Source: an uncultured Pseudomonadales bacterium (GTDB lineage: Bacteria > Patescibacteriota > Microgenomatia > UBA1400 > UBA1396). Taken from it: a DNA stretch of 64,000 nucleotides. Where the stretch lies: contig CAZEEI010000006.1 in NCBI GenBank assembly GCA_964511175.1, forward strand, positions 73-64,072, in the 5' to 3' direction. Shown here one piece after another: positions 13,750 to 57,499 of this stretch (position 1 is the first letter of the stretch; each line of letters starts with the position of its first letter). A program made the translations under genes and the position numbers. The notes beneath the pieces are model-generated. The model had not been told where the DNA came from. It saw nothing but the letters and a program-made list of their open reading frames with translations, and made no database searches.

Positions 13750-14610
13750 CTAGCGTCGCTTGCCTAGACGGACGCGGCTAATTCCCAGAGACAGGGCACC
13801 AAAGCCGATAATCGCCAGAGCTACGGTCTGGCCGGTGGAACCAGCCTGTGGCAGCTCCTCCGGCACTACGGTTGGCGTAGCCTCAACCGTGGTGGTACCA
13901 GTTGGCGTTGGAGTTGGGGTGGCAGCAGCGCAGGTACAATCGGTTTCCCCCGTGCATTGCGCGTTGCGGCAGTAACCTTCACTGCAGGTCAGGGTGCTGG
14001 GACAGTCGCTGTTGGTGTAGCAGTTGTCGTTACATTGTGGGTTCGGGGTTGGGGTGGGTGTCGCCGTAGGCGTTGGCGTTGGGGTTGGCGTAGGCGTTGG
14101 GGTTGGCGTAGGCGTTGGGGTAGGAGTTGGAGTCGGAATATAGAGGTAAGACTTACTGCAATTAGCCGACACACTCGCATCAGTAGCACAATAATCACCG
14201 GCACAAGGAATACAACGCACTGCCAAATAATCACCAGGCGTAATAGCTGGTGAAGTACTACTGGCACTATCGGCTATCTCGGTGTAAGCACCATCGGCCG
14301 TAGTCTGCTGCTGGAAAATATACCGATCCGTACCAGCGGCACCAGTACAGACAAAGGTCATGGCCGTACCTGGAACAAATTCTTGCGCTGTAGTTAATGA
14401 TAGACAAACGTTACCAATCTCAAATTGTAGCGAACAAATATTAGCGGCGGCGCGCGGACGGGAACTAGGTGCGGTTGGTGCCAGTGGACCACTGGCCTGG
14501 CGAATAAAGTAAACTACACCCAATAAGGCCGCCGTGAACACTAACAACGAAGCCGCTGCTACCGCAGTGCGTTGTTTCTTTAGCCAGATTTTTAGTTTAG
14601 TTAAGTCCAT
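13750..14610 (-). CDS. secreted Cys-containing protein with (TP)n linker and C-terminal sorting-like signal
   Basis: N-terminal signal/TM; TPTPTPTP x~20; C-terminus ELPQAGSTG + hydrophobic segment + RVRLGKRR. Confidence 0.6.
   Translation of the reverse strand: MDLTKLKIWLKKQRTAVAAASLLVFTAALLGVVYFIRQASGPLAPTAPSSRPRAAANICSLQFEIGNVCLSLTTAQEFVPGTAMTFVCTGAAGTDRYIFQQQTTADGAYTEIADSASSTSPAITPGDYLAVRCIPCAGDYCATDASVSANCSKSYLYIPTPTPTPTPTPTPTPTPTPTPTPTATPTPTPNPQCNDNCYTNSDCPSTLTCSEGYCRNAQCTGETDCTCAAATPTPTPTGTTTVEATPTVVPEELPQAGSTGQTVALAIIGFGALSLGISRVRLGKRR
14040..14140. repeat. tandem hexanucleotide-type repeat (GGCGTTGGGGTT...) encoding (TP)n
   Basis: seen directly; inside 13750-14610; produces mirror ORFs on other frames. 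Confidence 0.5.
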
Positions 14611-14629: not shown

Positions 14630-17158
14630 TTACTCCAGAATACCTGAGTCAGTGGCCTCCTCCGTGGTTTCTGCCGAAGTAGTTGCTTCCTCAGTTTCCT
14701 CAGTCGACTCAGTTGAGGTTGGCGGTAACTCTGGGCCACCGATTGGGTCAGCCGTGGACTCCCAAATCTGACATAAATCGTTGGCGGCGCAGGGTCGGCA
14801 CTGTACAACATAGCGGCCTACCTGGGTAATGGCCAAATCCTGCGATTGGTTGCTCGTTGACGAGACTGGTGCCAGGCTAGTCCAAGTTAGGTTATCGTTC
14901 GTGCTGCTCTGGGTAAAGGCGTAACGGAAATCATAGCGGACAGCGTTAGTTACGGTAGCGCAAGTAAAGTTAACACTGTCCCCCAACTGAGGGTCGGCGT
15001 TGGAAGCAAAAATGTCAATACACATAGGTGCAGGCGGTTGTTCGCAGACACATTGTTCATTTTGCTCGCTAACCGGACATTGGGTAGAACGACAAACCCC
15101 ATCTAAACAAGACAGGCTGCCGCCAACACAGATTGCGTCGTTAGCGCCAGCTCCACAAGCCTGATTGCAACCGGCGGTGGGTGTATCATCATCCTCTTCT
15201 TCAGTAGTAGTAGTGGTAGTGATTGTTTCTTGCGATTGAGCCAGGGCGGTAGTGGTAGCCGGCACTATCGGGGCTGGGGTAATTGGTTTACCAGCGGCAC
15301 CGCAGGAATCAATACCAGCATCACCGATACAAGTAACAACACTATTTCCCGTCAAATCCTTACAGAAACAGTTGCGGCCATTGGCACAACCAACAAACTT
15401 GCCATTGCTTGGCTCGCCATTACTCTGCTGCGATATTCCTGCACTATTGCATTTGGCGCCTTCCGTAACTTCTGGTGCACAGGCATCAGACTTAACACAA
15501 TCAGCAGACAGCACTCCGGCTGAAGTACAAACACGCTGATGTTGAGCCGGACAATCGCCAGCCGCACCACAAGCGCCGCGATCACCACCACGCTGGGTAG
15601 TAATAATTTGTCCACCAGGAGCATAATCATTGGGAGGATAAATCATCCCCTGACGAATGCCTGGGTTACAGGGAGTGTCTTTCCCGCCAGCAATCGTTTG
15701 GCCCCTGGTTTCACCGCCGGTATAAAGACCGCCAGCACCACCATTCACATAATATGCGGTGCCGGTACCGTACTTCCCTAAAGCACTCGGGCTTAAACTA
15801 TTTGTACTTAAGAAAACAGGGTCGCCGTCATCGTCATAAAAACCAATCTTAGGTAGGCTGACACCAAGTACACTAATTGGTGAACCCGAAGTCGTAAGAC
15901 CACTCATCGTTTTTTTACTATCATAAATAGTAACTGCACTCCCTGTGTTGGTGCCAAATTCGGAATTACGAAATTCGTCGCGATCTATACAAATCGCACC
16001 GTTCTGGCCACCACTTGTTTTACAAGTAAATTGCAGGGTAAAAGAGCTGTTACAAACTGCTCCTTTAGCATCAGTATTGCAATAACTATCTGCCAAAGCC
16101 AACTCACCACACGCGCGTAATTCAACCTCACCCACGGCCTTTTTCTGACAATCGATAATACCCTGTTGAAGATCAACTTTTAGGTACCCATACTGCGTCC
16201 CCGCCAACTCCGGCCGCCCCATCTGGCTGGCACAACTGGCGTTCACTAACGTACCACATTTTTGGTTACATTCACCGTTAATCTTGATTCGCGAACAAGA
16301 ATACAGACCACCCGCGCCACCACAATACGCGTGAGAAGAATCCGTACTTTCCCAGTTTTTCAGTCCAGCACAGGGATCACTCCCTTGATCCGTACCATAA
16401 GGAAGAGGCATGTCACGAACTTCCGCCGAACCACCACTGATCACCGTACCGCCCGTAGCTGAAGTAAAGTTGGCCGGTAAAACACCACTCCAGTTACCGG
16501 TAGCCAAAGCCGTAGCATAAGCACTACCACCCACCGCACCAGCGTTAGGATCAGCGTTGTACTCATACCCCATCGCTGCAATCGCCTGTGCCTGCTGGTT
16601 ACCACTACCCACTAAAGTCTGAGCCTGGGCAATCTGCGCCTTTACCGCGTCGCTCTGATACATCGATGCAGAATTAACCACTTTCTGTCCGGCAGTCGCT
16701 GCTTGTTCACTGGTAAGCTGACCCAACTGCCGCATCGATTCGACAATCGCCAACTGACGCACGGCTTCCGCCGCCCGTTGGGCTGCATTAGTCTGGGCGT
16801 GCTGTGCCGTATCAGCCGCCGACTGCTGGGAAAGTTGCGCGGCGGCTTGCTGTAAACTCTGGTCGACCGCCGCATTAACCTGCTCGGTACTCATGCCTTC
16901 GGTATTAAACTGCGGCTGACCATTGCCCTGACCATCGCACCAAATTGGGTTGCCCCAACTACCATTGTCACAACGGTAAGCACAACCGTTACCAGCATTA
17001 CGCGACTCCGTACCACAAGATGCCCAACCGTCGCAACAGCACCAACCATCACAAGCGGCGCGCGCTACTTCAGCTCGGGATAAGACCAGCACCAAAACAC
17101 CAGCTGCCAGCACCAACTTGGTTAGAATGGTACTGGTTAGTTTTTTTCGATTGATCAT
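14630..17158 (-). CDS. large secreted Cys-rich protein (842 aa)
   Basis: signal peptide; N-terminal CDGWCCCDGWASCG module; Ala/Gln-rich region; several CxxxC...C modules; C-terminal domain shared with 13750-14610. Confidence 0.65.
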   Translation of the reverse strand: MINRKKLTSTILTKLVLAAGVLVLVLSRAEVARAACDGWCCCDGWASCGTESRNAGNGCAYRCDNGSWGNPIWCDGQGNGQPQFNTEGMSTEQVNAAVDQSLQQAAAQLSQQSAADTAQHAQTNAAQRAAEAVRQLAIVESMRQLGQLTSEQAATAGQKVVNSASMYQSDAVKAQIAQAQTLVGSGNQQAQAIAAMGYEYNADPNAGAVGGSAYATALATGNWSGVLPANFTSATGGTVISGGSAEVRDMPLPYGTDQGSDPCAGLKNWESTDSSHAYCGGAGGLYSCSRIKINGECNQKCGTLVNASCASQMGRPELAGTQYGYLKVDLQQGIIDCQKKAVGEVELRACGELALADSYCNTDAKGAVCNSSFTLQFTCKTSGGQNGAICIDRDEFRNSEFGTNTGSAVTIYDSKKTMSGLTTSGSPISVLGVSLPKIGFYDDDGDPVFLSTNSLSPSALGKYGTGTAYYVNGGAGGLYTGGETRGQTIAGGKDTPCNPGIRQGMIYPPNDYAPGGQIITTQRGGDRGACGAAGDCPAQHQRVCTSAGVLSADCVKSDACAPEVTEGAKCNSAGISQQSNGEPSNGKFVGCANGRNCFCKDLTGNSVVTCIGDAGIDSCGAAGKPITPAPIVPATTTALAQSQETITTTTTTEEEDDDTPTAGCNQACGAGANDAICVGGSLSCLDGVCRSTQCPVSEQNEQCVCEQPPAPMCIDIFASNADPQLGDSVNFTCATVTNAVRYDFRYAFTQSSTNDNLTWTSLAPVSSTSNQSQDLAITQVGRYVVQCRPCAANDLCQIWESTADPIGGPELPPTSTESTEETEEATTSAETTEEATDSGILE

Positions 17159-18117: not shown

Positions 18118-19041
18118 TTACTCCATAGTAGGTGGTTGATTATCGGGGATTGTGGGTGGCATTACGGTTTTTGGTACATCAGTTGGTATGATTGGCTGCG
18201 GCGTCACCGATTTTGCCCCAGCAGCAACCGTTTTCCCCGAACGGCGGTATAAATAACCGACTAACACCAGAATGAACAGGCCTAGTCCTAAAACTAATGC
18301 CGCAGCGATTAGTCGGTTGCGGCTAGGCAAGGCCGGGCTTACCGAAACTGGTGCTGGGGTTGTTTCCGCCGTCACCTCTTCTGGCGCTTCAACTGCCGGT
18401 GTAGAATCAATAATCTCTGTCTGGGGTGTGACCGACGGCACCGGCACAGCGGTAACATCTTCATCACCAATAATGCTCTCTACGGCAATCGGTGGTGCTG
18501 GGGTTGCACTCGCCTGACCAGAAGCAGTGAGGGACACACCAGTCACTTTGCCCAGAACGTCCACTGCGTCGGCCTTGCGCAGCACCTGCGTTTGGGAAGT
18601 ATCAAAGGTAAGCTGCTTGGCAGTAAAAGCAGTCGTCGAACGCAGGGTGAGGGTGGCGATTTTAACTTCACCGTTAACGGTATAGCCGGTTGGTTCGGTA
18701 GTGAGACCAACAATATCGATCACCGTTTGGCCGTCAGCATTCACCGAAGACTGCACGGGAAACATCCAACCCAGACTGGCATTAGGTAAAATAGATACCA
18801 CATTCAAGTCATTGGGGCTGGGCGCGTCATAAGTAACACGGATGGCCACGCCGGTAATCGGTTGGGTGTCACTGGATAACACCACATCCACTTTAAAATC
18901 ACGGCCAGGCGAAGCCGTAGCGCTAGCGGGCACAAAACTTAAACTCGCTTTGCCACCAGACTGAAAAGCGGCAACCGGCGAAACCAAAACTAAGATCAAC
19001 AAACCAAAACCGGTGATTGCTTGGCAGGCTCTTTTTAACAT
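18118..19041 (-). CDS. cohesin-domain protein, membrane-anchored via C-terminal TM
   Basis: signal peptide; ~150 aa beta-sandwich matching cohesin pattern (GRDFKVDVVLSS...GVAIRVTYDAP..LNVVSI...IATLTLRSTTAFTAKQLTFD); PT/PAP linker; TM + YRRSGK. Confidence 0.6.
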   Translation of the reverse strand: MLKRACQAITGFGLLILVLVSPVAAFQSGGKASLSFVPASATASPGRDFKVDVVLSSDTQPITGVAIRVTYDAPSPNDLNVVSILPNASLGWMFPVQSSVNADGQTVIDIVGLTTEPTGYTVNGEVKIATLTLRSTTAFTAKQLTFDTSQTQVLRKADAVDVLGKVTGVSLTASGQASATPAPPIAVESIIGDEDVTAVPVPSVTPQTEIIDSTPAVEAPEEVTAETTPAPVSVSPALPSRNRLIAAALVLGLGLFILVLVGYLYRRSGKTVAAGAKSVTPQPIIPTDVPKTVMPPTIPDNQPPTME

Positions 19042-19043
19042 AT

Positions 19044-20771
19044 TTAGTCGCCCAGAACTTCCAACTTGTTATAACCAGACAGAATTAACGCGATGTCGGT
19101 AAAGGTAATGTTGCCATCACCATTAATATCGATAATCACTGATTCTGGTTTGTCACTAACGGGGGTAGTGAGTTTGGTCACATAAGTCATCATCTTGCCA
19201 AAGTCGACAATATTAATTTTATTATCATTATTAAAATCGCCGATGATGAGTTTCCATTCATCTTTATTGTGGCGGGGCAACTCGTTTAGCTTACCTTTAT
19301 ACAAGTAAACCTGCGTAAACTTGCGGCGCAAGGTGTTGTCACCCTTAACGGTAACGGTGTAGTAACCAGAGACAAAATCGTTCGGCAAAGAGCTGGTTAC
19401 GACCCGATAGCTGCTGGAGGTTGTATTCCAAGTAGCTTCCTGATTAGACAATTCGGCTACCACATCCGTAGCCGTTTCGACAGTAATTTTAACTTTGCGG
19501 GCACCAACGTTAGTGGTGATGCCTTTAACATTGAAGTTCAAACCGATGGTAGTTTCCGCCAAGAAATCCTTGACCTCGCTGTACCCATCTTCGCCAGCAA
19601 TGTTGTAAACCCAAACACGCACTGCCCCATTGGCAGTAGCTGGCACCGTGGCGACAATTTCGGTGTTAGTCCACTTCTTCACTGTTCCTAGAGCGGTACC
19701 AAAGTAGACATAATACTGAGTGGGACCAAAGTTGTAGCCTTTGATCGTCACGTCTGTACCGGCTGGTGCCGACGCCGGTGTCAAACTCTCCACTACTGGC
19801 TTGAGATTAACGTAATAGTAGCGGCTGATCGGATCAGAAAGATTATTCGCTGCATCGGTCACCTGGGCATGGATGGTGTTAAGACCATGCGGGCGAACTT
19901 TTTCGTATATCGGATCATTGGACCAAGCACTCCAAGAAACACCATCCTCACTGAAGCGATAACGCAGGAAACCGGGATAAGTAATGAGTGTGTCACTGGG
20001 CCGATCAGGCTTATCAACGGCCTTAACCGTAAACTTTATGTTGCGGTCAATAACGGTGCTGGCGGCAGCTGGACCTTGATCAAACTGAACCGTGGGTTTT
20101 TGGGTGTCATTAACAAAAGTTAGAGTCAGAGGCGGCACGGTTTGGAGAACATCCATACCAGCGTTGTCACCACTCTTGGCGATGGCGATGGCTTTGCCCG
20201 GATCTTGCTCTAAAGTGATTTGCCCTAGGGCGGTAGACATGAATGCAATGCGCGCAATTTTTACCCTGCCGGTGGCGGGAGTCTTGTAACCCGATGTACT
20301 TAGACAAGTTAAACTGAAATCGATGGTCACCTTTTTGTCGCCAGCCTTAGTTTCCCGTTCGACCGTGTTGATTTGGTCAGATAGGCAGGGATCAATACTA
20401 TCGGCCAAAGACAGGATTTGCGTGCCAGCCACATCTGCATTGAGGTCGATCACCATCAAATTGGGTGACGCACCAGCACCGGAGTTATAACCTATCTGAA
20501 AAGCTACACCGGATACTGCTGTACCCGCTGTATCCAAGTAGAGATCAACGAAAAAAATATCACCGCTATAACGACTGGTTGATTCTGTTTCCATGGTTAG
20601 CTTAACCGTGCCTAAAACCGAAGCAGCCCGGGAACGAACTTCCGTAGTCTCACCGCCCCCTTGGAAATAGTGTGAGAAGACATACCAACCGACGCCGCCG
20701 GTTAAGACCAAAAAGATAATACCGATCAGGGAATAAACCACCAGACGACCGCGCGTTAGTCTGTAAGACAT
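19044..20771 (-). CDS. multidomain surface protein with N-terminal cohesin-like module, Ig-like domains and C-terminal type-I dockerin
   Basis: C-terminal duplicated Ca-binding dockerin repeats IIGDFNNDNKINIVDFGKMM and IDINGDGNITFTDIALILSGY; N-terminal signal anchor; paralog at 31879-33615. Confidence 0.7.
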   Translation of the reverse strand: MSYRLTRGRLVVYSLIGIIFLVLTGGVGWYVFSHYFQGGGETTEVRSRAASVLGTVKLTMETESTSRYSGDIFFVDLYLDTAGTAVSGVAFQIGYNSGAGASPNLMVIDLNADVAGTQILSLADSIDPCLSDQINTVERETKAGDKKVTIDFSLTCLSTSGYKTPATGRVKIARIAFMSTALGQITLEQDPGKAIAIAKSGDNAGMDVLQTVPPLTLTFVNDTQKPTVQFDQGPAAASTVIDRNIKFTVKAVDKPDRPSDTLITYPGFLRYRFSEDGVSWSAWSNDPIYEKVRPHGLNTIHAQVTDAANNLSDPISRYYYVNLKPVVESLTPASAPAGTDVTIKGYNFGPTQYYVYFGTALGTVKKWTNTEIVATVPATANGAVRVWVYNIAGEDGYSEVKDFLAETTIGLNFNVKGITTNVGARKVKITVETATDVVAELSNQEATWNTTSSSYRVVTSSLPNDFVSGYYTVTVKGDNTLRRKFTQVYLYKGKLNELPRHNKDEWKLIIGDFNNDNKINIVDFGKMMTYVTKLTTPVSDKPESVIIDINGDGNITFTDIALILSGYNKLEVLGD

Positions 20772-20825
20772 ACTGGTTTTATGCTACGCGATTAATGGTG
20801 GAAGTGTCAATCAAGGTAAATTTTG

Positions 20826-20899
20826 TGCGCGCACAGGGACTCGAACCCCGAACCGCGAAGGTATAAGCTTCGTGCTCTAACCAATTGAGCTATGCGCGC
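20826..20899 (-). tRNA. tRNA-Ile, anticodon UAU (TAT)
   Basis: manual cloverleaf fold: 7-bp acceptor GCGCGCA/TGCGCGC, D-arm GCTC..GAGC, anticodon stem CGAAG/CTTCG with loop CTTATAC, 5-nt variable loop, T-arm CGGGG-TTCGAGT-CCCTG; no encoded CCA. Confidence 0.7.
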
Positions 20900-20900
20900 C

Positions 20901-20978
20901 CTTAGGGTGTCACCCTCCAGAGGTAAAATGAATCAGGGTGTCACCCTAAAATTTTTTACCTCTGGAGGGTGACACCTT
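20901..20978. repeat. REP family B element (AGGGTGTCACCCTCCAGAGGTAAAA ... TTTTACCTCTGGAGGGTGACACC nested palindrome)
   Basis: seen directly; abuts the 5' end of tRNA-Ile. Confidence 0.65.
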
Positions 20979-20981
20979 ACA

Positions 20982-21551
20982 TTATACGATAAAAGCCCAA
21001 AAAAGGAGGCTAACTAAGACTAGGAGCCCTACTATGGCCACTATTCCTAGTATCACCGGCAAACGACCACTGAGAACTGAAACCGGTTGGGCGGCGGCTG
21101 GAATAGGTGTGACTGTGGCCACCGGCTGAAACTCAGGGATGGGCGTAACCACCACTGCCCCTTCATAAGCTCGTTGGCGAATTTCCTGAGACTGCTGGGT
21201 TAAAACGGTGGCCGAACCAACCCCCACCACTAGTAATAAGATTGCAACTAGACCACTAACTAGGCGCAAATCGATTTTAGGCAAACGGCGCTGACGCTCG
21301 GAAAGACTACTGGATAACAAATGAGCAGTGTCGGTCACGCTTGGTTCGGATGGCTCCGGACCAGCGGTGGGCAAGGATGCTGGGACGGGCGCCGCGGGTA
21401 GACGAGGTGTTAGTTGAACATCTAAATTGTCGGTACCGGCGGAAAGCGGCGTTTCCCACCCCGCGGCACCCGCACTGTCCATCCGCGGGTAAGGTGTCGA
21501 GTCACCTTCGATTTCTCGCAAAACAGTATCTAAACTCGATGGTGTGTTCAT
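20982..21551 (-). CDS. Pro/Ala-rich bitopic membrane protein
   Basis: 189 aa, central TM, C-terminal TM. Confidence 0.5.
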   Translation of the reverse strand: MNTPSSLDTVLREIEGDSTPYPRMDSAGAAGWETPLSAGTDNLDVQLTPRLPAAPVPASLPTAGPEPSEPSVTDTAHLLSSSLSERQRRLPKIDLRLVSGLVAILLLVVGVGSATVLTQQSQEIRQRAYEGAVVVTPIPEFQPVATVTPIPAAAQPVSVLSGRLPVILGIVAIVGLLVLVSLLFWAFIV

Positions 21552-27344: not shown

Positions 27345-29336
27345 CTAGCGAGTTTGTTGTCTTCGTCTCTGTTTCGACAATCTTTTCATCCACTCCTCAT
27401 ACCCACCCAGTTTATCCAGACCGTAAAGCAACATTAAGGCTTCATACCAGTAGATGGACTCATCTAAACTCGAGGTCGGGAACATCCCCCGCTGATCCGG
27501 CAAAGTTAACAACCCCATGTTTCCTGGAGTTGGTTTGCCGCGGTTGCGTTTACCACCTTTATTATGTTCGTTAGCCAACCAGCCCGGAGCGGTAAAGGAT
27601 TGGAAAGACTCCGCCTGCGGATTCCACTTCACTAAGAAACCACCTTTAGGCATATCACCACCAACCACGAAGTCTTTGCGCTCTGGCTGCCGTTGTTCCA
27701 TCCTAACTAAACCGCGGAAGGGATCATCAAAAGAACCAGATGACTGCTGTGCATCCAGAATAAGACCACGATAATTTAAACCTCGTTTTGGATACGAAAG
27801 CACCAACGTACCTTGAATATCAATTAAGGGAACACCTAACTTCTCAATGATCGCGTCACCCGGGAAGAACCCATTCTCATCTTCGCCGGTAAGTTTGCCA
27901 TTCCGATCACGAATGACCGACGTTTTCCAGGCTTCACTACGCATGATGCCATCAAAAAGCCAACAAATAATTTTATTGGCTGTTTCTTGGGTTTGTGGAT
28001 CCTTACTTCTCGTCAACGGTTCAAGTATACTCAGTAAACGATAAAACTGATCCTCACGATCAGCTCTCCCTGGCAAAGTGTTATCTAGCATTCCCCGTCC
28101 AACAATTAGGTTGGCATGGCTGCTTTTACCGACAAATTCAACCAAATCTTTGAGCGCCGGCTGATCAGCCGACTTACTACCTTGACGATATCCAGCGGCG
28201 AACATTTGGATCGTTGGCAAATCGGCATCAACATTATAATGAAGGACGGTAGCGTGTTTTGTGGCAAGACCGTCTTCTCGGCGTGACCTGCCTAGTTTTT
28301 TGATTAGACGAAACTTGGGCTGGCCTTCTATCTTTTCTTCAATTTCGCCGATAAGTTCGGTTGTGGCATTACGCGACTCGGTTAACTCGCGCAAAGTAGC
28401 CGCTTGCAGTAACAACTCAGCGTGACTGAGAGTCGCTACTGGATACATATCTCGTTCCCTACCCGTGTAACTAGTATGGATCGTCGCCATACCAGGGGGG
28501 CCGCCAATGCGACCCGCAAAGTCACGCACTGCATGAGGGTCGGCCAACTGCTCCAGTATCCCCTTAAAGGCGGCTAACTGCATCCAAACGTGCGAGTTAC
28601 CATCCTGATCCACCTCTTTGGATACAGCTGGTCCCCGGGTATGAAAATGGCCTTCCACATCAGCATTCGATCTTTTGGGGTGGGACGCGGCCGCCTTACG
28701 AAGTGAGCCAACCGGGTTGATGTCAGAACCACCACCACCAGCATTGTGATAAACCCGGAATACTTCTGTTTTGCCGTTTGGATACCGAAAAGTAACTAAG
28801 CCACCATTGCGTACAATGGCTACTCTATTCTCCGGACCTAGATCACCAAGAATGGCATAGGGATTGAAACCAGCATACTGTCGCAGCCACTCTTCGTGGG
28901 ATTTAAACTGTGAGACCATTGCTACCAATTTGCCTTGTTCGACCAGGGGCCGAATAAATAATTCACGAAAACCAAGAATCTGTTGAGTGGGATCGGCTAA
29001 AAGATGGAGTGTGTTGGTATCCAGATGTTCTGTTTTTAGACCCTCAGCCAAATCACCATAGAGAGTAACTAGACAATTGTTAGTACTAAGCGCAAAGTTG
29101 AGGATAGATTCCAACATGTCATAGGCAACGGCGGCGTGCCCCCAATGGATATCGGACAGATGAAGATGTAGATGTGGTCCCTTGAAATCTAATTTCACTT
29201 TAGTTTCTGCTAATTCAAGGGTAAGAGCCTGCCTGGCTCGTTGAGCGCGTCTGACCTCCCGCTGCAATCGGCCGGCATATTCCTGATTTCCCATGGCGGG
29301 TGGTTGTTTTTCGTAGCGAAACTTTTTATTGGCCAT
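27345..29336 (-). CDS. calcineurin-like metallophosphoesterase fused to ~380 aa C-terminal domain of unknown function
   Basis: MPP motifs HLSDIHWG (D-x-H), LYGDLAEG (GD-x-x-D), EGHFHTRG (GH-x-H) in N-terminal third; no signal peptide; 663 aa. Confidence 0.6.
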   Translation of the reverse strand: MANKKFRYEKQPPAMGNQEYAGRLQREVRRAQRARQALTLELAETKVKLDFKGPHLHLHLSDIHWGHAAVAYDMLESILNFALSTNNCLVTLYGDLAEGLKTEHLDTNTLHLLADPTQQILGFRELFIRPLVEQGKLVAMVSQFKSHEEWLRQYAGFNPYAILGDLGPENRVAIVRNGGLVTFRYPNGKTEVFRVYHNAGGGGSDINPVGSLRKAAASHPKRSNADVEGHFHTRGPAVSKEVDQDGNSHVWMQLAAFKGILEQLADPHAVRDFAGRIGGPPGMATIHTSYTGRERDMYPVATLSHAELLLQAATLRELTESRNATTELIGEIEEKIEGQPKFRLIKKLGRSRREDGLATKHATVLHYNVDADLPTIQMFAAGYRQGSKSADQPALKDLVEFVGKSSHANLIVGRGMLDNTLPGRADREDQFYRLLSILEPLTRSKDPQTQETANKIICWLFDGIMRSEAWKTSVIRDRNGKLTGEDENGFFPGDAIIEKLGVPLIDIQGTLVLSYPKRGLNYRGLILDAQQSSGSFDDPFRGLVRMEQRQPERKDFVVGGDMPKGGFLVKWNPQAESFQSFTAPGWLANEHNKGGKRNRGKPTPGNMGLLTLPDQRGMFPTSSLDESIYWYEALMLLYGLDKLGGYEEWMKRLSKQRRRQQTR

Positions 29337-30948: not shown

Positions 30949-31869
30949 TTAGCGTCGGCGCAGCAAACTATAGCCACCGGCTGTTAACATTCCACCACCC
31001 GCCAAAGTAATAATTACTAAAGCGGCCGGACTGGCGGTTGCCGGAATCGGCTGAGTAACTTCTACCTGACCGGTAGTAGTCGTACTACTGTAAACAGTGG
31101 GCGTTGGCGTGGGTGTAGCAGTGGTGCCACTATAGACAGTGGGCGTAGGTGTGGGCGTAGGTGTAGCCCCAACTGGGGTAGGAGTTGGCACCGGAGTAGG
31201 TGTCGGCGTAGCGCCAACCGGCGTGGGCGTGGGCGTGGGCACGGGTGTCGGCGTAGCGGTGGGCGTTGGTGTAGGTGTAGGGGTGGGAGTGGGCTGTACC
31301 GAAGCGCCACTAGCACTATAAGAACCATTAGTCACCCCACCTAAAATATCGGTAGCATCAGATTTCTTGAGCATCTGTGATTGAGTTAAATCGAACGTGA
31401 CTGCCTTACTAGTAAAGGCCGCGTTAGCTCGAAAAGTAATCGTGGCAATCTTCGTATTGGCAGTGGTACTAGAGCCATTAGTCGAGGAATTAACCGCCAT
31501 TAAATCAACTTGGGTTTGGCCGCCAGCCGTATTGATATCAGTGACTGGGAAAGACCAGCCGCCACCCAACGCCGTATTTCCTTCAATGGTTACGGCCTGC
31601 AGATCGGTACCAGTAAAAACCAAACGCGAGGCAATGCCAGAAATAGCCTGCCCACCTGTGGTAAACATAATATCTACGGTGAAGTTTTGTCCGGTGGTCA
31701 TCGTGCCGGAACTGGGTTGGAGCAATAAACGCCCTACTCCGCCGGCGAGATAAGCTTGCGAGGCAACCGCCCCATTAAGCCAGAGAACCAAAGCCAAGAG
31801 GCCAACCGTCAGCCAACGGAAAACCGACTTCTTCGCCGAGTGTGTAATGTTCCCGGGCAGCGTATTCAT
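30949..31869 (-). CDS. cohesin-domain protein, membrane-anchored (paralog of 18118-19041)
   Basis: signal peptide; cohesin-pattern beta-sandwich (GQNFTVDIMFTT...ASRLVFTGTDLQAVTI...IATITFRANAAFTSKAVTFD); long (TP)n linker; C-terminal hydrophobic + LLRRR. Confidence 0.6.
   Translation of the reverse strand: MNTLPGNITHSAKKSVFRWLTVGLLALVLWLNGAVASQAYLAGGVGRLLLQPSSGTMTTGQNFTVDIMFTTGGQAISGIASRLVFTGTDLQAVTIEGNTALGGGWSFPVTDINTAGGQTQVDLMAVNSSTNGSSTTANTKIATITFRANAAFTSKAVTFDLTQSQMLKKSDATDILGGVTNGSYSASGASVQPTPTPTPTPTPTATPTPVPTPTPTPVGATPTPTPVPTPTPVGATPTPTPTPTVYSGTTATPTPTPTVYSSTTTTGQVEVTQPIPATASPAALVIITLAGGGMLTAGGYSLLRRR
31139..31321. repeat. tandem repeat DNA encoding (TP)n / (PTPV)n linker
   Basis: seen directly; yields mirror-frame poly-GV ORF. 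Confidence 0.5.
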
Positions 31870-31878
31870 ATCCTCCCA

Positions 31879-33615
31879 CTACTTTTCGGCATCACCGGGC
31901 GTTTCCAACTTGGTGTAGTTAGTAAGCAACAGGGATATGTCGGCCGCTGTTAAGAAATTGTCCCCGTTCAAATCATATTTACGGGTGGTATCTTTTATGG
32001 CATTAGATAGACCAACAAAATTACCTTCTTTTACCATGTCACTGAAATCCAGAATCGTAATTTTGTTGTCGCCGTTCACATCACCTACTAGCATAAGATC
32101 AGTGGCGGCCTTTTTACTGACCGCGTTCTGACTACCACGGGTCAAATAAACATTAGTAAAAAGGCGACGCAGGCGTGAAGTCTCCTTCACCGAAACTGAA
32201 TAATAAGCCGTAATGAGATTGGCATTATCGGTCAGAGGCGGCGTTACCACCACATAGGCATTTTCGGTGCCATTCCAAGTTGCATCCAAATTGGTAAACT
32301 TTTGCTCATAATTAACGCGGGTAACAGTCACTGCCAGCTTTTTCACACCACGATCTTGAGCAATCCCCTGCAAATTCATCACAATTTTTAAGTTGGTGTC
32401 CAAAGCAAAACTAACTTTGTTAGAAGCAGGTCGACCGCTAGGCAAAACATGCACCGTACCACCATTAGCGGTAGCTGGTACGATCGCCACAATCGTCTCA
32501 TCCGTCCATAGCGGCAGACTCGTAGTTTGGACATAGGCTGTGCCAAAGTACACCAAATATTTAGTACTGCCAAAATTGAAACCGTGAATAGTGATCTGCT
32601 GACCACCTGCGGCGTGGGTTGGCACGATACTGGTAATGGTTGGTGTTAGATCAACCAAGAAATTCTGCGAAATTTCCGTACTAATGTTACCAATTTTATC
32701 CCGACCACGCACATATATGGTATGACCGGTAGTAATATTGTGCGTCAAAGATGCTGTAACCGAAGTATCGGTTGTCCAAGCAGCGGGCCAACCGGCAGCG
32801 TCAAAACGGTACTGGAACTCAACCGCATTAGCTAAGCCAACCGTGTCGGCCGCGCGCTGCGGATTTTCCGTACCTTTCCAGTTAAAGTTGACGTTAGCAC
32901 TCTTAGTCGCCAGTTTGCCATCAGCCTGGGTAGTTAAAGTGTTGGTGGTAAATTGAACCACCGGCGGCTGAGCGTCGGCTGAAATCTTGATGGTGATCGA
33001 CGGGATCGCGTTCAAGGTATCATTACCATCGCTCTTACGGGTGACAATCGCCTTAGTTGGATCATGTTGGATAATTCGTTCCGCCGCCGCATTAGCGCGA
33101 AAAACGATAGTGGCAATTACCACTTCTCCATTGCTGTTATAACCGGCACCACTCGCACAAGTAGCACCAAAATCAATAAACACTCGGCGCTCCCCAGAAG
33201 CCTCGCGACTTACTTCGTTAATTTGATCGGCACAGCCAGGCATGTTCTGGAGAACCTTCGACTGAATCTGAATACCTGATCTAGTGGTGTCAGTATCAAC
33301 TACTTCTAAATCAGGTGTGGTACCAGCCGAAACATAATTGAGACCCAGCGCTACCGCCGAAACTGCCGTATTACCGGTGTTTAAGACAATATCAACCGGG
33401 AACTCATCTTTAACGTAGCGTGTATTTGAACCGGTTTTAAGCGTAACCGTAGCTGTACCAGCTGCTCCCACACTAGCCCGACCGCGAATTTCCGTGGTTT
33501 GTCCTGGCTGGAAGAAACGATTCATAACAAAGAAGGTAACTAGACCACCAATCGCCAGAACGGCCACAATCACACCAAGTGTTAAATAAGTACGAACCCG
33601 ACGGGACAGCGGCAT
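31879..33615 (-). CDS. multidomain surface protein with N-terminal cohesin-like module and C-terminal type-I dockerin (paralog of 19044-20771)
   Basis: dockerin repeats VGDVNGDNKITILDFSDMV and YDLNGDNFLTAADISLLLTNY; N-terminal signal anchor. Confidence 0.7.
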   Translation of the reverse strand: MPLSRRVRTYLTLGVIVAVLAIGGLVTFFVMNRFFQPGQTTEIRGRASVGAAGTATVTLKTGSNTRYVKDEFPVDIVLNTGNTAVSAVALGLNYVSAGTTPDLEVVDTDTTRSGIQIQSKVLQNMPGCADQINEVSREASGERRVFIDFGATCASGAGYNSNGEVVIATIVFRANAAAERIIQHDPTKAIVTRKSDGNDTLNAIPSITIKISADAQPPVVQFTTNTLTTQADGKLATKSANVNFNWKGTENPQRAADTVGLANAVEFQYRFDAAGWPAAWTTDTSVTASLTHNITTGHTIYVRGRDKIGNISTEISQNFLVDLTPTITSIVPTHAAGGQQITIHGFNFGSTKYLVYFGTAYVQTTSLPLWTDETIVAIVPATANGGTVHVLPSGRPASNKVSFALDTNLKIVMNLQGIAQDRGVKKLAVTVTRVNYEQKFTNLDATWNGTENAYVVVTPPLTDNANLITAYYSVSVKETSRLRRLFTNVYLTRGSQNAVSKKAATDLMLVGDVNGDNKITILDFSDMVKEGNFVGLSNAIKDTTRKYDLNGDNFLTAADISLLLTNYTKLETPGDAEK

Positions 33616-47221: not shown

Positions 47222-47701
47222 ATGCCTAGTAAAAATGCACGCAAAATTTTTAGGCCACAATCTTTTTACCATATTTATAACCGAGGCACGAAAAAACAAC
47301 CGGTATTTCTGCAGGAGAAAGATTATTGGCGGTGGCGTCAAATATTGGCGTCGACTTTGCTCGAATTTGAAGGCACCATTAGTATTACTCATTTTGCCTT
47401 TCTACCCAATCACCTGCATTTACTTATCTGGCAACAAAGCGAAAGAGATATTACCCGATTTATGAGAAAAATTACTAACCGATATGCGTTTTATTTACAG
47501 AAGGAATACAACTGGGTTGGCCACGTTTTTCAAGGAGTTTACAAGGCTAGTTATTTATACACCAAAAAAGAACGTCGCCGCATTGAAAAGTATATTCTAG
47601 ACAATCCTAAAAAACATGGATACGTCAACTGGAAACACGTTGGTAGAGGGTCAGACCTATGGCGGGGTCCGACCCCAGCCATAGGTCTGACCCCTCCCTA
47701 G
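47222..47701 (+). CDS. IS200/IS605-family Y1 HuH transposase-like protein (RAYT type), paralog 2
   Basis: IYNRGTKKQ and PNHLHLLIW HuH motif; C-terminal residues are read-through of REP. Confidence 0.7.
   Translation: MPSKNARKIFRPQSFYHIYNRGTKKQPVFLQEKDYWRWRQILASTLLEFEGTISITHFAFLPNHLHLLIWQQSERDITRFMRKITNRYAFYLQKEYNWVGHVFQGVYKASYLYTKKERRRIEKYILDNPKKHGYVNWKHVGRGSDLWRGPTPAIGLTPP
47646..47697. repeat. REP family A cluster downstream of RAYT paralog 2
   Basis: GGGTCAGACC...GGGGTCCGACCCC...GGTCTGACCCC seen directly. Confidence 0.65.
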
Positions 47702-50700
47702 GGGGCGACTTCGCGCCAATTAATCCGCGGCGCGCGCATTTCGGCTGGCACCCGCACCGCAAAATCGGGTCGATAACGGAAGACTTCCGCCGGAATCGTA
47801 TTATTTAAAACGCGGCGCGTCAAATTGTTATCGTAATTGCGGTTCAAGTCCACACCTTGCCAACCCACAAAGGTACCTTCGCCGACAAATTTATAATCGC
47901 CACCAGCGGCGGCTCCGCGGCTCGGCAACAACAGGGCGCCATTGGCAATATAAACACCTTCAATCACACCGTCGTTAGCGTCCGGCGTAGTGGGATCCGG
48001 ATGCCCCACCGAGCCGTCGATGATAATATCGCCTTGGACAACGAAGGCCAAAAAGCCACCATTATCCACCAAAACCGTATTTTTAATATTCAAATCGCCC
48101 GCCACAAAAATCACCAGCGACTCATCCGCCGCCACACTCCAACTATCCTGAATCGTGAGGTCGCCGCCGTGAAAATAAGCGTTAATGCCCGTATTCACTG
48201 GATCGGCCGTAGGCTTTTGGGCATCGGCCGCCGTCTCGCCAAAATCGCTGCTCGGGTTGGCCATAAATTTATACAGGCGGTAAAAGTAATCATAATTTTC
48301 CTGAGCAATCCGCGTATTCACCCGCCCAATACTGCGGCGATTATCCTCGTCCAGCTTAGTGGTTTGCAAACCCGTTTCCCGCGACAAATCCACATCGCCA
48401 CCACCGGTCAAAATCAGGCCCGCCGAATGAGACTGCCCCTCACTATTGCGCGCCATCAGGTAAGGTTTGCAGTTCGGCTCCGAGCAAGTATCAGGAATCG
48501 GGTCAGTAATCACGGTGCCGGTTTTGCCGAAAGCCATCACCGAACCACCTAGTGTCTGGAACCAAGGCTCACGCGCATCGGTAATATAAAAGTTCAAACC
48601 AGTTAGCGGCGCCGTTACCCCCGAAAAAGTGCAACCGATTGGACAGGAGCAAATGAAGTCGTTGGCGCGGTCGATAATCAGCGCCACCTGATTAGTGCCG
48701 GTATCCGAATAGGGCAGGTTAATCGTGTAAGTCCCGGCCGGTGTCACCGTAGCACTATCGGAATACTCCTGCTGGTAGTCATCACCGCGCACCGCTAGCG
48801 TACCTACGTCTACCGCCGAAATTTCGAACATCTCTACTTCCGCCAAGTACCAGTAACCGCCACTGGCACTGCCATAATTAGTGGAGGAGGCCGCCCGGAC
48901 ACGCCAGTAGCGATGGGGCGCGGAAGCATTCAAAAAATAAGTTTGGGTATTGCCGTCATTGGGTAAACTTACCGTTTGTAGTGTGGTCCAGTTGCTGTTG
49001 TCGTCAGAATAATCGATAAAAACACTATTAACCCGCCAGGTAGCACCCGGATACTGCCGAATTGTAAACTTCCGAATTTCTTTGGCACTGAGGTTGGTGA
49101 GCGTACCTTCCGTAGTGGCTTCACCGTTCTCGTCCAGCATCACCATGTTTTCGCCAAAATCTTGGCCAATCCAAGCCGTGTTGGCTACGGCATTACCATA
49201 TTGGGAACTTATCCAGTAAACCGCCGTGTTATTGTCAAAGGCTCGGGAAGCGACATACCCTGCCACATGCCCACCATCTACCGCATTGCCAGTGGTTGCT
49301 ACATCTGCACTAATTTCCGGCAAATCAGCGCCGGTACCAGTACAAGTCAGGGCACCCTCTAAAACGGCCGTATTATTGCCGTCATAGTAAACACTACCCG
49401 ATACCGGCGAAGTAGCAATGAAAGTTACCCAGTTGCTCCAGTTGCCATAAGTACCTTGGGGGTGGCAGAGGCGGTTATAACCCCGAACACGCGCCGTATA
49501 AAAACGCGTGTTGGCCGTAAAGCTGTATTGGTTAGTCAAATCGACCTCACCGGTAATCGCCGAAATCGACCCACCATCGGCGTGGATGGCAAAATTCGTT
49601 ACTCCCCAGCGATAAGTGCCGGTCAAGTTTTCATTGGCCAACAGCCGCCAGTAGCGGTGACTGGCCGGAACACTGAGATTAAACGTGTGCGCCACCGCAT
49701 CTTTAGGAAAAGTTAAGGTCTCCGAAGTTGTCCAAGTAGTACCGTTATCACTAAACTGGAGGTGGGCAGAGGAAATAGACCAAGTCGCCGCGTACTGCTG
49801 TAACACAACCCGACTCACCAATCTGGCTTTGCCTAAATCTTGACCGATCCAGGCGTTGCCAGCAATGGCCGTACCGGCCTGACTACTAAGCCAGGGGGTA
49901 TAAACAGAACTATCAAAAGCGTAATCATTCACGTAACCGCCATAGTCACCGCCGCTGAGCGCGCCGCCTACACTGGTCCAATTAACATCTGGGTTTTCAC
50001 TGGGATAAAGTTCAATGTAAAAATGATTACCCCAGGCGACTGACGTCCAACTAAGCGTAATCTGGCCGGCGCTATTCGCTATCGCTATACCACCCTCGAC
50101 GGGTGAAAGAATGGTTGGGGTTCCTGGCGCGGTTTTGCTTTCACCACCGCAGGTACCGCCACAACCGTCGTCCTGATTGCACTTGAGATTACAGTCGGGA
50201 TAACACGGGTCACCGCTACCGCCGCCACTAGGGCAAGGCAAGCCGCCGCACCAACCTAGGCCGCCGGCCCCGCCGGAACAGTCGCCACCATCCCAGGAAC
50301 CACCTTTGTCGGAGCAGGATCCGGGAGTTTCGCAGTTGCCGCAGTTATTGCCACCTCCGCCGCCACCTCCTCCTCCGCCGCCACCTCCTCCTCCGCCGCC
50401 TCCATTACATTCCTGATCGATCCAAGAGTTGCAGGTTTGCGTGGGAGCGCGGCAGCCGTTGATACAGCCGCCACAGAAGATTTGGCCGCCGGAACATCGG
50501 GAGTCACTGACAACATAACAAGAGGAGTTAATAACAAATGCACAACCCTGGTTATCGCAATTACCTGTTGGTTGACAAGGGATGGTGTGGTTACCACCAA
50601 CACAGATCTTAGCCGGAGCACAATTACACTCAAAAGTGCGAGGATCGTACCCACACTGGCACTCCTCTTGATAACCACCTTCACAGCACTCAATCCCATC

Positions 50701-50793
50701 TCCTTGACAAAGAGCCCGAACGTGAGAAGAAAACCCACCCCAAAAGACTAGTCCCGATAATACTAAGGCAAATAGTACTAGCTTTCTGATCAT
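47698..50793 (-). CDS. giant secreted surface protein: Cys-rich module, poly-Gly run, two discoidin (F5/8 type C)-like domains, C-terminal parallel beta-helix
   Basis: signal peptide MIRKLVLFALVLSGLVF; HRYWRLLANENLTGTYRWGVTNFAIH and HRYWRVRAAS...YLAEVEMFE discoidin-like; GGDLTIQDS...VAGDLNIKNTVLVDNGG beta-helix repeats. Confidence 0.65.
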   Translation of the reverse strand: MIRKLVLFALVLSGLVFWGGFSSHVRALCQGDGIECCEGGYQEECQCGYDPRTFECNCAPAKICVGGNHTIPCQPTGNCDNQGCAFVINSSCYVVSDSRCSGGQIFCGGCINGCRAPTQTCNSWIDQECNGGGGGGGGGGGGGGGGGGNNCGNCETPGSCSDKGGSWDGGDCSGGAGGLGWCGGLPCPSGGGSGDPCYPDCNLKCNQDDGCGGTCGGESKTAPGTPTILSPVEGGIAIANSAGQITLSWTSVAWGNHFYIELYPSENPDVNWTSVGGALSGGDYGGYVNDYAFDSSVYTPWLSSQAGTAIAGNAWIGQDLGKARLVSRVVLQQYAATWSISSAHLQFSDNGTTWTTSETLTFPKDAVAHTFNLSVPASHRYWRLLANENLTGTYRWGVTNFAIHADGGSISAITGEVDLTNQYSFTANTRFYTARVRGYNRLCHPQGTYGNWSNWVTFIATSPVSGSVYYDGNNTAVLEGALTCTGTGADLPEISADVATTGNAVDGGHVAGYVASRAFDNNTAVYWISSQYGNAVANTAWIGQDFGENMVMLDENGEATTEGTLTNLSAKEIRKFTIRQYPGATWRVNSVFIDYSDDNSNWTTLQTVSLPNDGNTQTYFLNASAPHRYWRVRAASSTNYGSASGGYWYLAEVEMFEISAVDVGTLAVRGDDYQQEYSDSATVTPAGTYTINLPYSDTGTNQVALIIDRANDFICSCPIGCTFSGVTAPLTGLNFYITDAREPWFQTLGGSVMAFGKTGTVITDPIPDTCSEPNCKPYLMARNSEGQSHSAGLILTGGGDVDLSRETGLQTTKLDEDNRRSIGRVNTRIAQENYDYFYRLYKFMANPSSDFGETAADAQKPTADPVNTGINAYFHGGDLTIQDSWSVAADESLVIFVAGDLNIKNTVLVDNGGFLAFVVQGDIIIDGSVGHPDPTTPDANDGVIEGVYIANGALLLPSRGAAAGGDYKFVGEGTFVGWQGVDLNRNYDNNLTRRVLNNTIPAEVFRYRPDFAVRVPAEMRAPRINWREVAP
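50351..50403. repeat. 18-bp tandem repeat (GCCGCCACCTCCTCCTCC)n encoding 19 consecutive Gly
   Basis: seen directly within 47698-50793. Confidence 0.6.
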
Positions 50794-52694: not shown

Positions 52695-53086
52695 ATTTAT
52701 ACCCTCTATCCTTTTTCTCTAGGCTCCTATCGCCTAAAATAAAAATCCTACACCCCAAAATACCTTCTATTTCGGCTTATAGGACTCATTAAAACCTGAT
52801 TATAACAGCTCAGCTCACGAAAAAGCAAGCTTCAGCTTTTTGTGAATTGACACTTTTGACTTCGCCAAATGTGTCAACAACTAAAGCGAGAAACACCTGC
52901 TATCCACAAAATGAGTCCATGACTGAGTAGTAAAAACAGGCTCCATCTTCTCTTTGCAACACGACAACCTTTACCCGTTTGTAACTTTTGTCTGTTTTGA
53001 ATTCTGCCTTAAACTCCACTACTGCTTCAAAAGTAAAATAGACGGAACCATTTTGGTAGCAGATGTATTGGTAGGTCCCGGAATCC

Positions 53087-53803: not shown

Positions 53804-53808
53804 CTTGC

Positions 53809-54789: not shown

Positions 54790-54837
54790 AGTTGCTCATG
54801 GATGAGTGAATTGTAGACCTGTGTATTTTTGTAATGC

Positions 54838-57495: not shown

Positions 57496-57499
57496 AGTT

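Follow-up and report, generated by a model that had tools for sequence, protein, structure and literature searches.

An enzyme-free cohesin-dockerin gene pair as a probable surface-assembly cassette of uncultured bacteria

Two adjacent genes on the minus strand of a 64-kb stretch of DNA (the window, by which we mean the whole stretch analysed) encode proteins that probably build a self-assembling surface scaffold. The upstream gene, A1 (19044..20771, 575 aa), carries both a cohesin and a dockerin, which act as socket and plug in cellulosomes, and the downstream gene, B1 (18118..19041, 307 aa), encodes a cohesin protein with a C-terminal membrane helix; both open reading frames lie exactly where an earlier note on this DNA had placed them. 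B1 starts 2 nt past the A1 stop codon. The evidence for the dockerin and the cohesins of A1 and B1 is far beyond chance, and similarity searches indicate that the two-gene cassette is widespread in uncultured bacteria.

Domain architecture of the dockerin protein

The open reading frame of A1, its Pfam TIG and Dockerin_1 matches, an AlphaFold2 (AF2) model and Foldseek comparisons give the domain order N-terminal transmembrane (TM) anchor, cohesin, FN3/Ig-like domain, TIG, X-module-like domain and dockerin. A promoter-like site (TTGACA, 18 nt, TAGCAT; 20781..20810, minus strand) lies between the genes for tRNA-Ile and A1, some 10 nt before the start codon of the latter; it is a consensus match only (10 of 12 positions), and such sites are no commoner in the region than in shuffled sequence. 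The 24-residue hydrophobic segment LVVYSLIGIIFLVLTGGVGWYVFS (20673..20744, minus strand, as are all features below) is predicted from hydropathy to be a signal anchor and forms a helix in the AF2 model. It is followed by the motif TEVRSRAA (20622..20645), for which the family consensus is [ED]-[IV]-R-x-[RK]-A-[SA]; R46 and A49 are invariant among 13 A-type proteins, and 48 of 149 family representatives match a strict regular expression for it. The cohesin-fold domain (aa 54-222, 20106..20612), identified by PDB profile matches, Foldseek and a local HMM (E 1.4e-58), precedes an FN3/Ig-like beta-sandwich (aa 223-320, 19812..20105) that is all-beta in the AF2 model with pLDDT of about 80-89. Next comes an IPT/TIG domain (aa 325-392, 19596..19799; PF01833, E 1.5e-15), which matches domain D of cyclodextrin glucanotransferases (CGTases).

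The C-terminal dockerin (aa 508-575, 19047..19250) scores 27.8 bits against Pfam Dockerin_1 (PF00404) in the whole protein, above the gathering cut-off of 22.9, and 33.5 bits (E 4.8e-8) when the C-terminus is searched in isolation; all ten of the family C-termini searched match this model, and dockerins are the top PDB matches of the profile. Both calcium-loop repeats described in the earlier note are present, DFNNDNKINIVD at 19203-19238 and DINGDGNITFTD at 19095-19130. They lie 36 residues apart in a tandem loop-helix arrangement, with the 12-residue pattern of D or N at loop positions 1, 3 and 5 and D at position 12, and the calcium-ligand positions D512, D523, D548, D552 and D559 show no variation among 13 homologues.

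Directly preceding the dockerin is an X-module-like beta-sandwich of about 100 residues (aa 400-500, 19272..19574), and the two are kept together in 10 loci. The best PDB matches of a profile built from this module only are the X-module-dockerin (X-Doc) chains 4wi0_B and 4u3s_B (E 0.03-0.06), and two of the ten members match CarboxypepD_reg. When module and dockerin are combined in one profile the top six PDB matches are all X-Doc chains, with E values from 1.4e-11 to 1.1e-7: 2b59_B ranks first (E 1.4e-11), followed by 4wi0_B, 4u3s_B, 3kcp_A, 5g5d_B and 5k39_B, with all enzyme-borne dockerins below them. Adding the module gains 14-20 bits on these dyads relative to a dockerin-only profile. All six come from type-II Coh-XDoc complexes that serve attachment to the cell surface (PMC5141474). 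Dyads of this kind anchor scaffoldins there. The characterisation in the earlier note of a textbook type-I dockerin therefore holds for the dockerin but not for its type; at the sequence level the C-terminal part of A1 matches type-II dyads best, with enzyme-borne dockerins trailing by about four orders of magnitude. In the AF2 model of A1, pLDDT is below 40 in the dockerin region and only 55-70 in the region before it, for which an X-module fold is predicted from sequence matches. A CBM20 or starch-binding identity for aa 400-500 was also considered, prompted by a phmmer alignment of aa 316-486 with CGTase domains D and E; it was dropped because CBM_20 gave no match at E<=1 and the module profile points to X-modules.

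The HMM searches proposed earlier thus divide, in that Dockerin_1 exceeds its gathering score in A1 and Pfam Cohesin (PF00963), searched against A1 and B1 singly, gives no match at E<=1. At the family level Pfam Cohesin matches 2 of 8 members (best E 2.1e-5) and 9 of 117 representatives (best E 2.1e-10). A profile made from eight A and B N-terminal domains retrieves cohesins as its only matches among 177,635 PDB sequences, near full length and with a best E value of 1.5e-4. The N-domain of the A1 model aligns with cohesins 6kgc and 6kgd at target-normalised TM scores of 0.73-0.74 (Foldseek), and the top match is the cohesin-FN3 dyad 2w1n (E 5e-11). The predicted models, both of monomers, contain a jelly-roll beta-sandwich of nine strands that can be superimposed on cohesins of known structure. 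On this profile and model evidence we regard the cohesin fold of A1 and B1 as established despite the single-protein Pfam misses, in agreement with the earlier proposal of one cohesin in the 307-aa protein and another in the N-terminal part of the 575-aa protein. Between its strands 6 and 7 the B1 model shows no crowning helix, the hallmark of type-II cohesins, and it is closer to type-I cohesins, so the analogy with type-II X-Doc complexes is incomplete.

The membrane-anchored cohesin gene and a paralogous pair

B1 encodes, in order, a signal peptide, a cohesin, a P/T-rich stalk, a TM helix and a cytoplasmic tail, much as had been described. The predicted signal peptide MLKRACQAITGFGLLILVLVSPVAA (18967..19041; sequence and hydropathy, the cleavage being inferred) belongs to a hydrophobic N-terminus ending in ...SPVAA. 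The cohesin-fold domain (aa 24-178, 155 aa, 18508..18972) is joined by a 65-residue linker of Pro/Ala/Val/Thr/Glu-rich composition (18313..18507) to the 22-residue C-terminal TM helix LIAAALVLGLGLFILVLVGYLY (18247..18312), after which there is a tail of 42 residues (18121-18246).

A paralogous pair, A2/B2 (30949-33615), which the earlier note does not mention, is located about 11 kb from A1/B1. A2 (31879..33615, 578 aa) has the same architecture as A1, with a cohesin (32968-33510), a TIG domain (32452-32643), an X-like module (32116-32418) and a dockerin (31882-32094) containing loops DVNGDNKITILD and DLNGDNFLTAAD. It is 37% identical to A1 over its full length (E 5e-104), matches the local HMM at E 1.5e-64, and is recognised by Pfam TIG and Dockerin_1 (30.4 bits against the cut-off of 22.9). 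B2 (30949..31869, 306 aa) starts 9 nt past the A2 stop codon, with GGGAGG within the spacer, and resembles B1 in having a signal peptide, a cohesin (31300-31764), a PT-repeat stalk of 90 residues (31030-31299) and a C-terminal TM helix ending in RRR (30952-31029). It shares 40% identity with B1 over the cohesin domain (E 2e-35; local HMM E 5.3e-60). The whole cassette is thus duplicated in the window, and the A and B copies are equally diverged (37% and 40% identity).

Family distribution, gene order and enzyme content

Homologues were gathered by exhaustive HMMER searches; word-indexed searches missed even the paralogues within the window. The family comprises 1,456 cluster representatives, with A-type (cohesin plus dockerin) and B-type (cohesin plus C-terminal TM) architectures; among 149 representatives there are 44 of the former and 63 of the latter. 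Metagenomes were scanned with a seed taken from a 13-sequence A-type alignment, using the dockerin loop only, since the 149-sequence alignment was too diverse. Contigs from species-representative genomes yielded unrelated TIG proteins only and not the cassette. The same A/B pair occurs in four loci (L001-L004), and a cohesin gene lies immediately downstream of the dockerin gene in 9 of the 10 metagenome loci that could be assessed with this dockerin-only seed. In 10 of 11 loci only 0-7 nt separate the stop codon from the next start, and GGAG is mostly found inside or beside the last dockerin codons. No third gene family, such as a sortase or protease, was found to be conserved near the pairs.

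In six loci (L005, L013 and L016-L019) the dockerin protein itself lacks a cohesin, and a cohesin gene still comes next. Because many dockerin proteins are of this kind, the constant relation is that between a dockerin protein and a downstream cohesin protein. In a tree of the cohesin domains the A-type and B-type sequences form distinct clades, 44 of 50 nearest neighbours being of the same class. The short TM-cohesin proteins of minimal loci join neither clade, and the tree does not indicate which subfamily partners the dockerin.

We detected no catalytic or carbohydrate-binding families in A1, A2, B1 or B2, consistent with the earlier observation that no CAZyme module is attached. There is likewise no glycoside hydrolase or other catalytic family among 117 family representatives, only one of which carries a carbohydrate-binding module (CBM_11). 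Surface and membrane proteins are encoded in the neighbourhood, as had been noted, and genes for GH57, GH15 and GT4 proteins are located 5-10 kb downstream; these GH/GT proteins have no dockerin module, and dockerin loops are absent from all other open reading frames of the window. Neither enzyme-borne dockerins nor a multi-cohesin scaffoldin with a CBM, as in cellulosomes and amylosomes, are encoded within the 64 kb, each cohesin protein having a single cohesin.

Relation to known systems and proposed assembly

The type-II system known from Clostridium thermocellum and Acetivibrio cellulolyticus and represented by the six PDB entries above (ScaA/CipA X-Doc with SdbA/ScaF, OlpB and similar proteins) shares with the cassette a C-terminal dyad of an Ig-like module and a dockerin, which as in A is borne by a non-catalytic protein that also has cohesin, and its partner is likewise a surface-anchored single-cohesin protein. 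The order of A followed by B, which we take to be that of a scaffoldin and its anchoring protein, resembles cipA-olpB-orf2p. In contrast to this system, A and B lack enzymes and CBMs, have one cohesin each, of a more type-I-like form without the crowning helix, and are encoded by translationally coupled genes; B relies for anchoring on its C-terminal TM helix and not on SLH repeats or a sortase, and the scaffoldin-like A has an N-terminal TM anchor of its own. In the amylosome of Ruminococcus bromii, Amy4/Sca1 combines a cohesin with a C-terminal dockerin, like A, and Sca2 is a separate surface-anchored single-cohesin acceptor, like B. Self-recognition of Amy4 leading to multimerisation has been demonstrated experimentally (PMC4611034), and the dockerins of Amy12 and Amy16 are among the PDB matches of the A dockerin profiles. 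However, Amy4 is a GH13 amylase whereas A1 and A2 are without a catalytic module, Sca2 is attached by a sortase, and no adjacent, coupled arrangement is described for the R. bromii genes.

Modules outside cellulosomes have reportedly been surveyed by Peer et al. in 2009. The non-cellulosomal structures compared here are a cohesin of Archaeoglobus fulgidus (2xdh) and cohesins of Clostridium perfringens GH84 and GH33 proteins (2w1n, 2o4e, 2jh2 and 2vo8), the clostridial ones differing in being appended to toxins and glycosidases. SEML1_0315 of the patescibacterial epibiont Southlakia epibionticum is an essential dockerin-domain surface protein of 927 aa (PMC10633639). Likened to A1 by description only, it is an enzyme-free dockerin envelope protein of Ig-like domains from a host-attached organism; unlike A1 it has no same-strand gene immediately downstream, and no cohesin has been reported.

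We favour, with moderate confidence, a reading in which A and B make up a cohesin-dockerin cassette for surface assembly that is self-contained and free of enzymes, with the X-Doc dyad of A binding the cohesin of B in a miniature version of the cellulosomal scaffoldin/anchoring-protein arrangement. B would act as the anchor: exported by means of a signal peptide that is then cleaved off, it would be fixed in the membrane by its C-terminal TM helix and display its single cohesin on the Pro/Thr-rich stalk. A would be a five-domain rod (cohesin, FN3-like, TIG, X-module and dockerin) inserted by its N-terminal signal anchor, and we infer that its dockerin, together with the X-module, binds the cohesin of the co-translated B in a calcium-dependent manner. 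As both proteins are predicted to be membrane-anchored, the geometry of such a cis complex would be hard to picture unless A is processed. The membrane-proximal cohesin of A would be left free as a second socket, which could accept another A, its paralogue A2, or the products of dockerin genes elsewhere. More speculatively, higher-order polymerisation of this kind may produce chains or a cross-linked surface mesh serving envelope architecture or cell-cell adhesion.

It is conceivable, though unlikely, that A mainly self-polymerises, as the earlier note proposed, its dockerin binding the cohesin of another A head to tail while B caps or roots the fibre or receives a different dockerin. The presence of both modules on A, the precedent of Amy4 binding its own dockerin (PMC4611034), and the separate subfamily formed by A-type cohesins (the same 44 of 50 neighbours), which suggests a specialised partner, fit such a scheme; the six loci in which a cohesin gene follows a dockerin protein without cohesin do not, and release of a fibre would require cleavage of the predicted TM anchor of A. 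We give a similarly small chance to a scaffold for enzyme display resembling a cellulosome or amylosome, with hydrolases encoded elsewhere docking on A, as a one-cohesin mini-scaffoldin, and/or on B. Here the mirroring of a scaffoldin with X-Doc and an anchoring cohesin protein, the weak alignment of A1 residues 316-486 to CGTase domains and the nearby GH57, GH15 and GT4 genes have to be set against the lack of dockerins on those proteins or elsewhere in the window, the absence of catalytic families and the single carbohydrate-binding module among the 117 representatives, and the better explanation of the CGTase-E-like region as an X-module.

We consider it very unlikely that A and B are independent adhesins for external ligands such as glycans or a host surface, their modules not interacting and the dockerin serving as a calcium-stabilised terminal module. 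The isolated position of the essential Southlakia gene would suit this idea, as would the generally unknown function of non-cellulosomal cohesins and dockerins (PMC5244752), but neither the near-obligatory adjacency of dockerin and cohesin genes at 0-7 nt in distant loci nor the co-duplication of the pair would then be expected. A more ambitious extension, which we regard as doubtful, is that the cassette provides the units of a self-assembling polymer or lattice, so far undescribed, on the surface of ultra-small bacteria of the candidate-phyla type. A would then be cleaved at the post-TM motif, a new sorting or processing signal, and polymerise head to tail through X-Doc and cohesin on a root anchored by B, with the fibre attaching to host or partner cells and the two pairs having orthogonal specificities.

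Cohesin-dockerin modules occur in all three domains of life, and their role outside cellulosomes has long been an open question. Their non-cellulosomal function is still described as unknown (PMC5244752). The assembly cassette favoured here represents a minimal and widespread version, with two small genes, no enzymes, clear predicted membrane anchors and near-obligatory synteny, so that four small recombinant domains would suffice for a direct test of which modules pair. Synthetic protein assembly, too, would gain new orthogonal pairs of cohesin and dockerin from it. The small-genome episymbiont suggested in the earlier note as the source is a tentative idea, its backing being that relatives lie on contigs of 446 kb and 792 kb. 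If the source is of the Patescibacteria type, the cassette would qualify as candidate machinery for the envelope or for host attachment, in a group from which an essential dockerin protein is already known (PMC10633639).

Two cohesin and dockerin gene pairs in the window

Pair 1 consists of two ORFs, A1 (19044-20771, 575 aa) and B1 (18118-19041, 307 aa), whose coordinates and minus-strand orientation are exactly those reported in an earlier note on this DNA. A1 contains an IPT/TIG domain (aa 325-392; Pfam, E 1.5e-15) and, as the note had claimed, a dockerin (Dockerin_1, aa 511-563; 27.8 bits versus a gathering score of 22.9), which scores 33.5 bits when the C-terminus is searched in isolation; the two Ca loops that were quoted are located at 19203-19238 and 19095-19130. 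Dockerin_1 is passed by 10/10 related C-termini, and a profile of these sequences ranks dockerins first in the PDB, with calmodulin-type EF-hands lower. The predicted topology is a 24-aa hydrophobic anchor at the N-terminus of A, and a signal peptide and a C-terminal TM segment in B.

Although neither A1 nor B1 matches Pfam Cohesin at E<=1, the cohesins proposed for the N-terminus of A1 and for B1 are supported by profile and Foldseek searches. The N-domains of both proteins and of relatives found later are mutually alignable, and a profile of eight such domains, two of which match Pfam Cohesin individually, retrieves cohesin modules as its only matches among 177,635 PDB sequences; the best, CaCohA2 (6kg8/6kgc, E 1.5e-4), covers nearly the whole domain. 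The model of full-length A1 is moderate (pLDDT 62.8; about 70-80 in the N-domain and below 40 in the dockerin). Its top Foldseek match is 2w1n, a cohesin-FN3 double module, and single cohesins are matched with a target-normalised TM of 0.73-0.74. Because the domain profile finds only cohesins in the PDB and the A1 model matches cohesins, we conclude that both proteins bear a genuine, but divergent, cohesin fold.

A second pair, A2 and B2 (30949-33615), was overlooked in the earlier note. A2 (578 aa) contains Pfam TIG and Dockerin_1 (30.4 bits) and is 37% identical to A1 over its full length, and B2 (306 aa) shares 40% identity with B1 in the cohesin domain. Within the 64 kb, no cohesin-like domain was detected beyond those of A1, B1, A2 and B2, and no dockerin bearer beyond A1 and A2. 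The neighbourhood of pair 2 is unrelated to that of pair 1, which further argues that the cassette is an autonomous pair. The cohesins of A1 (20106-20612), A2 (32968-33510) and their closest relatives contain two invariant cysteines (C129 and C156 in A1) within an insertion that is absent from the cohesins of B-type proteins (cohesin plus C-terminal TM); this pair may form an extracytoplasmic disulfide.

Upstream of A1 are genes encoding PilN, a PilO-like protein, an fn3/Big_13 membrane protein and a 189-aa TM protein, followed by tRNA-Ile(UAU) and a promoter-like site. This near-consensus sigma-70-like site (TTGACA, 18 nt, TAGCAT; 20781-20810, minus strand) stops about 10 nt short of the A1 start codon, and a leaderless or nearly leaderless mRNA would therefore result. 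The tRNA gene (anticodon TAT in DNA; 20825-20899, minus strand) is directly upstream of A1, and the essential dockerin gene of Southlakia is likewise located just downstream of a tRNA gene. In most bacteria AUA is usually read by a lysidine-modified CAU tRNA, and the UAU isoacceptor is uncommon. Between the tRNA and 189-aa genes (20903-20979) the 13-nt palindrome AGGGTGTCACCCT occurs three times with an exact 31-nt spacing, in an inverted repeat with 38-nt arms; it may represent a terminator, an array of operators or a small mobile repeat.

Downstream of pair 1 are genes encoding a 299-aa TM protein, an 842-aa Cys-rich protein, a 286-aa PT-rich protein and a LytR_C protein, beyond which lie cytoplasmic-looking GT4, GH57 and GH15 genes. 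The Cys-rich secreted proteins of 286 and 842 aa (13750-14610 and 14630-17158, both minus strand) have in common a Dumpy-DPY-like Cys knot and a Cys-containing module whose similarity between the two is weak (E 0.006). The shorter one terminates in LPQAG, a TM segment and KRR, which is a sorting signal of the sortase type; among the window proteins scanned, none was identified as a sortase. Also encoded on the minus strand are a 663-aa protein with no Pfam or NCBIfam match (27345-29336) and a protein of 1042 aa (47698-50826) that contains two F5/8-type-C (discoidin) domains and is likely to be another surface or adhesion protein. The source organism may plausibly be a monoderm bacterium of the candidate-phyla type. 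The G+C content is 0.35-0.41 at 1-2000, 52001-58000 and 62001-64000, whereas it is about 0.50 elsewhere; the low-G+C stretches may have been gained by horizontal transfer or be atypical in some other way.

Type of the dockerin

A conserved beta module of ~100 aa is located directly N-terminal to the dockerin. Searched alone, it matches PDB entries weakly, the best being 4wi0_B and 4u3s_B (E 0.03-0.06), and two members of the set match CarboxypepD_reg. A profile of module plus dockerin has as top PDB matches 2b59_B, 4wi0_B, 4u3s_B, 3kcp_A, 5g5d_B and 5k39_B (E 1.4e-11 to 1.1e-7); on these X-module-dockerin (X-Doc) chains it gains 14-20 bits over a dockerin-only profile, and all enzyme-borne dockerins rank below them. 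The corresponding structures are complexes of a type-II cohesin with an X-module-dockerin dyad, by which scaffoldins are fixed to the cell surface, and the X-module has been likened to the Ig-like module of carboxypeptidase D (PMC5141474). Since X-Doc chains known from type-II surface-attachment complexes are matched best, the C-terminus of A1 is, as judged from sequence profiles, an X-Doc-type dyad, and not the "textbook type-I" dockerin originally described. In this respect A resembles the type-II system, but the cohesins here fall short of the type-II pattern.

Family, synteny and translational coupling

When 1.84 billion cluster representatives were searched exhaustively with HMMER, 1,456 proteins were retrieved at E<=1e-3 (105 at E<=1e-30). 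The best 149 of these include 44 A-type proteins (N-terminal TM, 1-2 cohesins, C-terminal dockerin), 63 B-type proteins and 39 with a cohesin and an N-terminal TM only. Pfam searches with 117 of the 149 detected Dockerin_1 (23), TIG (17), Cohesin (9, best 2.1e-10) and fn3 (8); no glycoside hydrolase or other catalytic family was present among these 117 representatives, and a CBM was found in one only. In a domain tree the A- and B-type cohesins form distinct subfamilies, with nearest neighbours of the same class for 44/50 and 52/68 domains respectively; the tree does not reveal which subfamily is the partner of the dockerin.

Loci L001-L004 encode a 580-aa A-type protein and, starting 6 nt beyond it, a B-type protein of 282 aa, and L005 encodes a TM-X-Doc protein (304 aa) followed by two cohesin proteins. 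An independent synteny test, a metagenome scan seeded on the dockerin loop alone, gave 11 true X-Doc loci, and a cohesin-like domain is encoded by the next gene in nine of the ten assessable loci. Many of the dockerin proteins encoded there are without a cohesin of their own; what stays constant is that a cohesin protein follows the dockerin protein, and no further gene family is conserved near the pairs as a third component. Reduced or expanded cassettes occur in L005 (1245-3636), L011, L013 (3015-7073) and L016-L019. The smallest form comprises a 216-aa TM-X-Doc protein and a 193-aa TM-cohesin protein, and in three-gene forms the gene of a short TM-cohesin protein separates those of the dockerin protein and the B-type anchor, suggesting that the short cohesin proteins are related to the A-type N-terminus by gene fusion or fission.

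The stop-to-start distance is 0-7 nt in 10/11 loci, typically ...GGAGAT-TAA-(0-3 nt)-ATG. At the junctions of L001, L005 and L009-L019 the last dockerin codons are GGAGAT, GGAGAC or GGAGAA (Gly-Asp/Glu). The cohesin gene is thus provided with a Shine-Dalgarno-like GGAG by the conserved Gly-Asp codons of its upstream neighbour, and this GGAG lies inside or beside the 3' end of that neighbour's coding sequence. Its presence there may partly explain why the terminal residues are conserved. The gap is 2 nt in pair 1 (junction 19041-19046) and 9 nt, with GGGAGG, in pair 2 (junction 31869-31881).

A short, conserved motif, roughly Q-[ED]-[IV]-R-[KS]-[KR]-A-[AS]-x-P-x-G-x-A-T, is present about 8-15 residues past the N-terminal TM helix in A1 (20622-20645), A2 (33481-33504), proteins of L005, L009 and L017 and the otherwise unrelated 189-aa membrane protein (21167-21190, in gene 20982-21551). 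Of the 149 family representatives, 48 match a strict regex for it, A-type as well as B-type proteins being among them. The motif might serve as a signal for sorting or processing; in most members it departs from the classical -3/-1 rule for signal peptidase.

A possible enzyme-free assembly

Our analysis demonstrates the modules, predicted topology, tight gene coupling (with predicted co-expression), co-duplication and conserved synteny of the pair, from which we infer, with reasonable though limited confidence, that the X-Doc of A binds the cohesin of B in a Ca2+-dependent manner. The cassette would then be a miniature, enzyme-free scaffoldin/anchoring-protein arrangement. More speculatively, the cohesin of A might accept further A molecules, giving chains or a mesh, or might alternatively accept dockerin proteins encoded elsewhere. 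Amy4 of R. bromii provides an experimental precedent for self-recognition with multimerisation, and Sca2 for an anchored acceptor (PMC4611034).

The domain identification itself is ordinary. Cohesin and dockerin modules outside cellulosomes have been described before, and an adhesin role has been suggested for them in Omnitrophota and in ANME archaea; the epibiont Southlakia has an essential dockerin protein (PMC10633639). In the literature searched, which did not include the key 2009 survey, no X-Doc/cohesin cassette of two genes is described that is TM-anchored, enzyme-free and translationally coupled. The new points are that this minimal cassette is widespread, and that it pairs a type-II-like X-Doc with type-I-like cohesins.
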